Below, in pieces: positions 9,437-12,400 of a stretch of DNA of 37,454 nucleotides. Positions within the stretch are counted from its first letter, which is position 1; every line of letters starts with the position of its first letter. This DNA is from a virus (taxonomy: Duplodnaviria; Heunggongvirae; Uroviricota; Caudoviricetes): the IMG/VR virus record IMGVR_UViG_2531839195_000016, positions 1 through 37,454 of that record. One strand, given 5' to 3'. The position numbers are program-made.

Positions 9437-12400
9437 TAAGACATTCCCGCTCTTACACATCCCAGCCCTGAAAAAGGGCATTACCAGAAACAAATCTCTA
9501 TGGTTTTGCGTTTCTTTGCGAAGCCAACTCTATCTAATCATTAAGGAAATTATCTATGGGTACTATTGCAACTAAAAGCAAGAAAGCGGCTCGCATCGAG
9601 TCAGCCTTGCTGAACAAACTGGCACTGATGGGGCAGAAGACATTCGCTCGAGCAATGGGGGTTCCTGAATATCAGGTAAGCCGATGGAAGAATGGTTTCT
9701 TCTCGCAGGTAAGCATGATGCTTGCTGTTCTGGAATACGGAATCGAAGACGATGAAATGGCTGAATTGACTAAGCGGCTTGCCGATTACCTGACAAAAGA
9801 AAAAGCCCCGAAGAACGGCGAATTCTTCGAGGCCTAATGTAGAAAGACTGGATCAATCCACGGGAGTAATTATGACAAAACGTCGTAAGAAATACCAGGA
9901 AAAAGAAGAGATTCGACACCCTGATTCACCTGAGGGATTAGTGGTAGCCGCAGCAAATAACAGGGCGTTCGCAGAGCGCCTTGTTGGTGTTTACAGACTA
10001 GCCAAAGCAGGAGTGAAACATGGGCGTCGTTAAGTTAGCTGATTACAGGCCTCAACTGGAGGTCGTGGAGCATCGCGTGGCAGAACTCGAAGATGGCTAC
10101 ACTCGGACTGCAAACACACTGTTAGAAGCCGCCATGCTTTCTGGACTTACTCTACATCAGTTACTGATTGTTATGGCTGTGTGGCGCAAGACATACGGTT
10201 ACAACAAAAAATAGATTGGATCGGAAACGAACAGTTCGCTGAACTCACTGGCATGGCACCAACCAAATGCTCTACCGCCAAAAACGAGCTTATCAGAATG
10301 GGAGTTCTCATTCAGGTGGGGCGTCAAGTTGGTATGAATACAAACATTTCCGAGTGGAAAACGAAAGTTAACGGATTCGGTAAAACATTTACCAATTCGG
10401 TAAAACAAACCTTCACCAAATCGGTAAAAAGCAATTTACCGAATCAGTCAAACACAAAAGACAATATACAAAAGACAATAAATACAAATACCCCCTTACC
10501 CCCTAACGGGGGCGGCGATGGGCAGGTTAAACCTGAACGTCGCAAGGCAGAACGAATCGACTACGAATCCTTCCTGAACGCCTACAACACCGAAGTCGGT
10601 GACAGACTGCCACACGCTGTTGCGGTCAACGAGAAACGCAAACGCCGCCTGAAGAAAATCATCCCGCAACTGAAAACGCCAAACGTGGACGGTTTCAGAG
10701 CGTATGTCAGGGCGTTTGTGCATCAGGCCAAGCCGTTTTACTTCGGAGACAACGACACGGGCTGGACGGCCGATTTTGATTACCTGCTGAGGGAAGACTC
10801 GTTAACGGGGGTACGGGAAGGGAAGTTTGCAGACAGGGGGATTGCATGAAACAGGATATCGAAGCGAGCGTTATCGGTGGCCTGCTGATTGGTGGATTAA
10901 CACCAACCGCCAGCGACGTTCTGGCAACGCTGGAGCCGGAAGCGTTTTCAATTCCGCTCTACCGGAAAGCCTTCGAGGTTATCCGCAAGCAGGCGCGAAA
11001 CAGAAACCTAATCGACGCGCTGATGGTTGCCGAGGCGTGCGGAGAGGAGCATTTCACGTCAATCCTGATGACCAGCAAGAACTGCCCGAGTGCCGCAAAC
11101 CTGAAGGGATATGCTGGAATGGTCGCGGATAACTATCACCGCCGTCTGGTGCTGGAAATCATGGATGAAATGCGTGAACCAATCCAAAGCGGAACCATCG
11201 ACGCATCGAGTCAGGCGATGGATGAACTTGTAAAGCGTCTTTCAGCCATCAGAAAGCCCCGTGACGAGGTAAAACCTGTACGGTTAGGGGAAATCATCAC
11301 TGACTACACTGACACGCTTGACAGGCGTCTGAGGAACGGAGAAGAGTCAGATACCCTGAAGACCGGAATCGACGAACTTGACGCCATCACCGGAGGGATG
11401 AACGCAGAAGACCTGGTGATTATCGCCGCTCGTCCTGGTATGGGTAAAACCGAACTGGCGCTGAAGATTGCCGAAGGCGTTGCAAGCCGCGTTATTCCTG
11501 GTTCTGACGTCCGGCGCGGAGTGTTGATTTTCTCGATGGAAATGAGCGCATTGCAGATTGCAGAGCGGAGCATTGCCAACGCCGGGAGGATGTCGGTTAG
11601 CGTGCTGCGAAATCCTGCATCGATGGATGACGAAGGCTGGGCGCGTGTTGCTAACGGCATGAGTCAGCTTGCAGATTTGGATGTATGGGTAGTCGATGCC
11701 TCGCGGTTATCGGTCGAAGAAATACGCTCAATCGCAGAACGGCACAAACAGGAAAATCCAAACCTGTCACTCATCATGGCGGATTATCTTGGCCTGATTG
11801 AGAAGCCGAAAGCAGACCGCAACGACCTCGCAATTGCTCACATCTCCGGAAGCCTGAAGGCGATGGCGAAAGACCTGAAAACGCCAGTTATCTCCCTGAG
11901 TCAGCTTTCGCGCGATGTTGAGAAGCGACCAAACAAACGCCCGACAAACGCAGATTTGCGTGATTCAGGAAGCATTGAACAGGACGCAGACTCAATCATC
12001 ATGCTCTATCGGGAAGCGGTATATGACGAGAACAGTAGCGCCGCGCCATTTGCTGAAATCATCGTGACGAAAAACCGTTTTGGCTCGCTTGGTACGGTTT
12101 ACCAGCGGTTCTGTAACGGACACTTTGTTGCATGTGACCAGGATGAAGCCAGACAGATTTGCACAGCATCAAATGCACCTGCTGCGCGTGGCAGACGATA
12201 TGCACAAGGGGCTGACGTATGACCATCTACATCACTGAGATAATAACAGGCCTGCTGGTAATCGCAGGCCTTTTTATTTGGGGGAGAGGGAAGTGTGGCT
12301 GACTGGCAAATTCCAATCATCATTCTTGCCGGAGCTTCGCTGGTTGCTGGCTTTATCCTGCTGAAAAAGCATAAAGACCGTGATCAAAAAGTTGAAGTTC

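Follow-up and report, generated by a model that had tools for sequence, protein, structure and literature searches.

Repeats placed inside a coding sequence may act as DNA sites or may only encode a repetitive peptide, and this question is raised by a repeat array in the replication initiator gene of a P22-like lambdoid prophage. The prophage (Caudoviricetes) is contained in IMG/VR record IMGVR_UViG_2531839195_000016, of which positions 1 to 37,454, the whole stretch analysed, are referred to here as the window. The element formed by the array, the adjoining A-rich tract and a palindrome of guanine and cytosine (GC), together 10368-10512, is with high confidence the vegetative (theta-mode) origin of this prophage, a specificity variant of ori-lambda placed inside its own initiator gene O. 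The segment is identical at 140 of 145 positions (97%) with positions 32840-32984 of phage P22 (NC_002371), a feature annotated in RefSeq inside gene 18 as rep_origin, 'similar to phage lambda'. The element is therefore already known, as it is a near-identical copy of the annotated P22 origin. The assignment is based on anatomy, positional homology, constraint at the DNA level and covariation between the protein domain and its binding site. A preliminary description of the locus had proposed a lambda-style origin in the initiator gene at 10370-10495. The P22 identity, a repeat spacing identical to that of lambda and the Phage_rep_O context of the gene support this proposal, and its coordinates were essentially right.

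Organization of the iteron array

A repeat search identified a family of four copies within 84 base pairs (bp) with start-to-start spacing of 20, 24 and 23 bp. All pairs among the four copies were also found as inverted repeats, hence each unit is a 17-bp palindrome with the pattern TTTACC-N5-GGTAAA (6+5+6). Iterons 1 to 4 deviate from this pattern at 2, 0, 1 and 2 positions, respectively. The preliminary description had reported three to four direct repeats; they are real and four in number, while the unit is this palindrome and not a 10-bp direct repeat. Perfect copies of the decamer TCGGTAAAAC are present at 10377 and 10397, a copy with a single mismatch at 10421 and a degenerate fourth copy (TCAGTCAAAC) at 10444. 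These decamers represent the right halves of the four iterons. A search of the window for TCGGTAAAAC-type sites gave 7 matches where 1.8 were expected, and 7 was reached in no shuffle. Among 500 first-order Markov simulations of the window, none had more than one iteron-type site in a 100-bp span, and the simulated mean was 0.9 sites per whole sequence compared to the four in 84 bp observed. A terminator-like hairpin predicted on the minus strand at 10428-10388 was rejected as a false positive produced by pairing of iterons 2 and 3, in which only 4 of the 18 pairs are GC.

Translation reads iterons 1 to 4 in phases 1, 0, 0 and 2 of the codon, respectively. Because iterons 2 and 3 are in phase and 24 bp apart, the translation shows the peptide repeat FTNSVKQ/TFTKSVKS. 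The peptide KTFTNSVKQTFTKSVKS, present in the translation, had been correctly ascribed to the DNA repeats in the preliminary description and comes from iterons 2 and 3. Iterons 1 and 4, read in the other two phases, give unrelated peptides.

A-rich tract and GC palindrome

The A-rich stretch noticed earlier after the repeats was confirmed at 10452-10489. It is composed of 25 A, 6 C, 5 T and 2 G on the plus strand (GC content about 0.32, AT skew +0.56). Within 9800-12222 no 40-mer is less stable, and in the whole window the tract lies at the 99.8th percentile. The tract begins with ACACAAAAGACA, and the same 12 bases are found in lambda, P22 and HK97. It contains a 14-bp tandem, ACAAAAGACAATA(T/A), in two units at 10454-10481. 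Ahead of the GC palindrome, TACCCCCT is present twice at 10489-10504.

One unit of the 14-bp tandem, equivalent to window 10454-10467, is lost in three haplotypes (L098, L146 and L149) belonging to two backbones, BTP1-like and E. coli-like. The deletion shortens the unwinding element and shifts the frame of O, which then ends at 157-158 amino acids with the DNA-binding domain only. The losses resemble repeated slippage at a tandem that belongs to the origin itself.

Covariation of the initiator domain and the iterons

The relation between initiator and iterons was analyzed in 80 viral contigs sharing the C-terminal domain of O along with EC556, BTP1 and HK97, which makes 83 loci, plus the window. 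The loci possess three types of O N-terminal domain, all of which score as Phage_rep_O. Type A, represented by the window, BTP1 and P22 (11 loci), always carries four copies of TTTACC-N5-GGTAAA. Type B, represented by HK97 (43 loci), always carries four copies of TTAGCC-N5-GGCTAA at the same positions, and type C, with an O of 315 amino acids (30 loci), always carries five to six copies of CCGCACATGA. No exception to this pairing of N-terminal type and iteron type was found in the 83 loci and the window.

In the alignment of the window with HK97, the first 66 or so nucleotides of O are nearly identical, and so is the whole sequence that starts with the A-rich tract. The approximately 370 bp between them (window 10083-10451), comprising the recognition domain and the iterons, are swapped as a block against HK97 (L003) and the type C loci, for example L017. 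Recognition domain and iterons thus travel as one exchangeable specificity cassette of about 370 bp, flanked by the conserved 5' end of O on one side and by the A-rich tract on the other. Phages of other specificities share the A-rich tract and the C-terminal domain.

The GC palindrome at 10499-10512 forms a second mosaic junction, to which at least three C-terminal domains are attached (P22-type, HK97/BTP1-type and L106-type). One HK97-type O, in IMGVR_UViG_2657245532_000006 (L006), possesses a 24-residue tandem duplication in the N-terminal domain and is 297 amino acids long compared to 273.

Constraint on the DNA sequence

Sequence constraint was analyzed in 38 distinct type A haplotypes. 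At iteron arm positions 1, 2, 4, 5 and 12-17, none of 40 sites was polymorphic, compared to 13 of 44 sites in the rest of the array. The A-rich tract had no substitution at any of its 38 positions. When only third-codon sites were considered, 0 of 25 were polymorphic in the arms and the A-rich tract, in comparison with 31 of 103 in the N-terminal domain (p=5e-4). The iterons are kept in three codon phases, and this indicates a constraint on the DNA which selection for a protein repeat cannot explain.

Gene context and distribution of features

Window 8488-12222 represents a standard lambdoid immunity and replication module, collinear with the annotations of P22, HK97 and BTP1. The gene order is a cI-like repressor on the minus strand, a cro-like gene, cII (Pfam Phage_CII), a small gp53/orf48-like open reading frame (ORF), the O-like gene and a DnaB-family helicase. 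In the repaired O protein, Phage_rep_O covers residues 19-113 and the iterons start right after it, while the shared C-terminal domain starts after the GC palindrome. The iterons are thereby situated in the part of the gene that joins the N-terminal DNA-binding domain to the C-terminal one. The stop codon of O overlaps the start codon of the helicase gene (ATGA, 10846-10849). The positions of the individual features are listed in the table.

Features of the replication module in the window
Feature	Positions	Strand	Sequence or structure	Remarks
pR-like promoter	9168-9196	+	TTGACA-17-GAAAAT	Consensus match only; position as PR in the P22 record
oop-like antisense RNA terminator	9803-9835	-	Strong	Overlaps the 3' end of cII; equivalents annotated in P22
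O-like initiator gene, P22 gene 18 type	10020-10849	+	Split: 10020-10214 and 10181-10849	
Iteron 1	10368-10384		TTAACGGATTCGGTAAA, left arm degenerate	Aligns with lambda ITN1 and the start of P22 rep_origin
Iteron 2	10388-10404		TTTACCAATTCGGTAAA, perfect 6+5+6 palindrome	Encodes FTNSVK
Iteron 3	10412-10428		TTCACCAAATCGGTAAA	Codon phase as iteron 2; encodes FTKSVK
Iteron 4	10435-10451		TTTACCGAATCAGTCAA, right arm degenerate, like lambda ITN4	Invariant in 38 haplotypes
A-rich tract, presumed DNA-unwinding element	10452-10489		38 bp	Directly after iteron 4; no substitutions in 38 haplotypes
GC palindrome	10499-10512		CCCCC-TAAC-GGGGG	Right edge of the origin; last bases of P22 rep_origin
DnaB-family replicative helicase, P22 gene 12 type	10846-12222	+		Pfam DnaB and DnaB_C; annotated as helicase in relatives

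Rightward transcription from the pR-like promoter would cross cro, cII and the origin, and this predicted layout is consistent with activation that depends on pR transcription, as in origins of the lambda/P22 type. A conserved pO/oop 33-mer (ACTGGATCAATCCACGGGAGTAATTATGACAAA) is present at about 9848-9880, as judged by comparison with the 33-mer quoted in PMC3349717. The oop-like unit (9803-9880) matched no Rfam family. The Rfam scan also gave nothing in the origin region and matched only a transfer RNA (tRNA) at 115-187 and an int-alpA RNA at 19682-19744. The replication module contains no DnaA box (TTWTNCACA), and the whole window contains 3 against 3.5 expected. A DnaA-dependent, oriC-like origin fails as a candidate as no cluster of DnaA boxes is found beside the unwinding element. 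When the repaired O was searched against PDB sequences, no match was obtained at E<=0.01, which leaves the iteron-binding domain with no structural template.

The split O gene and other frameshifts

The preliminary description had located the repeats inside the O gene. They do lie within a Phage_rep_O gene, but O is not one intact ORF, being split at 10206-10211 by the loss of one base, which changes A7 to A6 and is followed by an in-frame TAG (10206-10214). ORF 10020-10214 matches Pfam Phage_rep_O over positions 1-46, and ORF 10181-10849, in another frame, over positions 45-95. Among 72 IMG/VR contigs, A7 is present in 71 and A6 in one. The only other A6 carrier found is IMGVR_UViG_2534682160_000015. 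The A6 contig (L022/L085) shows 32 differences to the window over 2442 bp, and the cII regions of the two are not alike; on these grounds it was ruled out as the same assembly.

Similar losses were found in other genes by comparison with relatives 95-99.5% identical. In the integrase (minus-strand ORF 205-1056), T6 is changed to T5 at about 1058, giving 283 amino acids compared to 384 in a 99.5%-identical E. coli genome. The large terminase (20871-22276) shows A6 to A5 at about 21929 and A4 to A3 at about 22225, which place Terminase_6N and Terminase_6C in different frames, and a further A4 to A3 loss is present at about 14369. Since the integrase, the large terminase and the site at about 14369 have losses of the same type, homopolymer under-calling is indicated rather than decay or programmed slippage, and the O frameshift is most likely a sequencing error of this kind. 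In the real phage, the origin and the initiator are probably both intact. The gene calls of this record, including O, must be corrected for frameshifts before functions are deduced from them.

Slippage by -1 at the A6-UAG site, or one additional A in the transcript, would restore the exact wild-type O (…YNKKIDW…). Programmed -1 frameshifting or transcriptional slippage was nevertheless rejected as the main explanation because of the predominance of A7 among the contigs and the other homopolymer losses.

Proposed mechanism and alternative explanations

By homology with lambda and P22, induction of the prophage would start rightward transcription from pR and thereby expression of an O protein of the P22 gp18 type. 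The winged-helix domain at the N terminus of O would bind as dimers to the four 17-bp iterons (10368-10451) and bend or wrap them into an 'O-some', and the stress so produced would melt the adjoining 38-bp A-rich tract (10452-10489). The C-terminal domain of O may then load the phage's own DnaB-type helicase, encoded directly downstream, onto the melted strands, after which host primase and polymerase III would take over.

Several points weigh against assignment of the element as a functional origin. O binding, melting, helicase loading and origin firing are presumed here from lambda and P22. The 'core' arm positions of the 0/40 test were picked after the data had been seen; such a post hoc choice has less influence on the third-codon test of the A-rich tract. 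Since the GC palindrome is translated into Pro-Pro-Asn-Gly-Gly, the protein may account for its conservation, and the palindrome is missing in one relative with a different C-terminal domain (L106); for both reasons its role as DNA is uncertain. The O gene is broken as read, and an origin in the exact sequence would lack its initiator. The A6 allele also occurs in a second, non-identical contig, which fits an error of a single assembly less well.

The repeats could also be regarded as a low-complexity peptide linker between the two O domains, shaped by protein-level selection and having no function as DNA. The segment is indeed translated and joins the two domains, and a peptide repeat is visible where iterons 2 and 3 are read. 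However, the four repeats occupy three codon phases and only two of them give the same peptide. Every unit is a palindrome in the DNA. The synonymous sites of the arms and the A-rich tract are invariant, and the repeat sequence switches along with the DNA-binding domain. The homologous repeats of lambda were moreover shown by experiment to be bound by O (PMC7466680, PMC8022706), and a mere linker is hardly credible. It is also highly improbable that the array is a cluster of O-binding sites serving mainly regulation or interference, through O titration, handcuffing or exclusion of phages of the same specificity, and not initiation. Replication of lambda is inhibited by ectopic copies of ori-lambda or of its iterons (PMC3349717, PMC4488673), which agrees with such a role. 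Against it, the unwinding element joined to the array is conserved and spaced from it as in lambda, and the prophage has no replication module other than the one that holds the array. Interference would follow from origin function as a side effect and would not replace it.

A different matter is whether the frameshifts are real, in which case the prophage would be defective in O, integrase and terminase and the origin would be silent unless a co-infecting phage supplied a P22-type O in trans. The split of the O frame at 10206-10214, the equally split integrase and large terminase and the sharing of the A6 allele with the second contig are in agreement with this. The 14-bp deletion which truncates O in other relatives indicates that inactivation of O does occur in prophages. 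On the other side, all the compared lesions are one-base losses in A/T homopolymers, in a sequence that otherwise shows 95-99.5% identity to intact relatives, a pattern typical of under-calling, no nonsense mutations, insertion sequence elements or large deletions were seen, and nearly all IMG/VR contigs carry A7. A defective prophage is therefore considered rather unlikely. If the frameshifts were real, the orphan iteron array might act as a decoy titrating the P22-type O of incoming phages (origin-mediated exclusion), or slippage at AAAAAA-UAG might give a throttled supply of initiator; both ideas are very unlikely. An origin whose initiator gene is split only by a homopolymer error in the sequence remains the preferred explanation, and the correct label for the segment is a P22-type ori, consisting of iterons, unwinding element and palindrome, inside gene O/18. 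Its significance beyond annotation is small.

Other features of the window

The prophage abuts a tRNA-Thr gene at 115-187. The int-alpA small RNA at 19682-19744 (Rfam, 45 bits, above the gathering score) is flanked by the lysis genes and the small-terminase region, at a great distance from the end of the prophage that carries the integrase. The ORF at 26751-27095 contains a GAGCCA hexamer repeat at about 26950-27000, giving a Glu-Pro-type peptide repeat; this repeat is 30 bp longer than in phage APC_JM3.2. An endonuclease gene with HNH_3 and AP2 domains is present on the minus strand at 34774-35316, just upstream of the tailspike (Head_binding) gene on the opposite strand. This gene looks like a homing-endonuclease insertion.

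Comparison with known origins

The closest known system is P22, for whose origin within gene 18 the reference is Backhaus and Petri 1984, as listed in PMC13397905. P22 and the window share the four iterons, the A-rich tract, the C5/G5 palindrome, the N-terminal type of O and a downstream gene for a DnaB-type helicase. All five substitutions between them are found in iteron centres, spacers or the hairpin loop. They differ past the palindrome, where the C-terminal domain of O in the window is of HK97/BTP1 type and not of P22 type, and O is frameshifted in the window. Gene 18 of P22 is described as having four repeats of about 20 bp unlike those of lambda, and gp12 as a DnaB-type helicase (PMC8022706).

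Ori-lambda consists of four 18-bp iterons and a 38-bp AT-rich sequence within O (PMC3349717), and the O-some forms by binding of O to these iterons (PMC7466680). It is situated at 39034-39160 inside gene O and, as in the window, occupies the linker of a Phage_rep_O gene. The lambda iterons start at 39034, 39054, 39078 and 39101, which gives the same 20/24/23 spacing, and they are likewise four 6+5+6 dyads, but with arms TCCCTC/GAGGGA (TCCCTC-AAAAC-GAGGGA) in place of TTTACC/GGTAAA. The A-rich tract of lambda is also 38 bp long, abuts iteron 4 and starts with ACACAAAAGACA. The two O proteins are only about 29% identical, and the right-hand palindrome of lambda differs from that of the window. 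Lambda O recruits P-DnaB, whereas the partner gene in the window encodes a DnaB-family helicase.

The HK97-type origin is found in HK97, HK446, mEp213 and many Stx phages (1717, 2851, Nil2). It agrees with the window in the 5' end of O, the A-rich tract, the palindrome, the C-terminal domain, the helicase and the positions and spacing of the iterons. It differs in the central N-terminal domain and in the iterons (TTAGCC-N5-GGCTAA), which represents a swap of the specificity cassette. No specific description of the HK97 or BTP1 iterons was found in the open-access literature. The Stx phages 933W/P27, with six iterons, and phage L, with six 11-bp repeats in gene 18, also have the origin within the gene of the initiator, and an AT-rich tract follows the iterons (PMC7466680, PMC8022706), but the number and sequence of their iterons differ from the canonical four of the window. 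The comparison illustrates the known principle that the domain recognizing the origin is inherited together with its binding sites, in one cassette that is exchanged among lambdoid phages.

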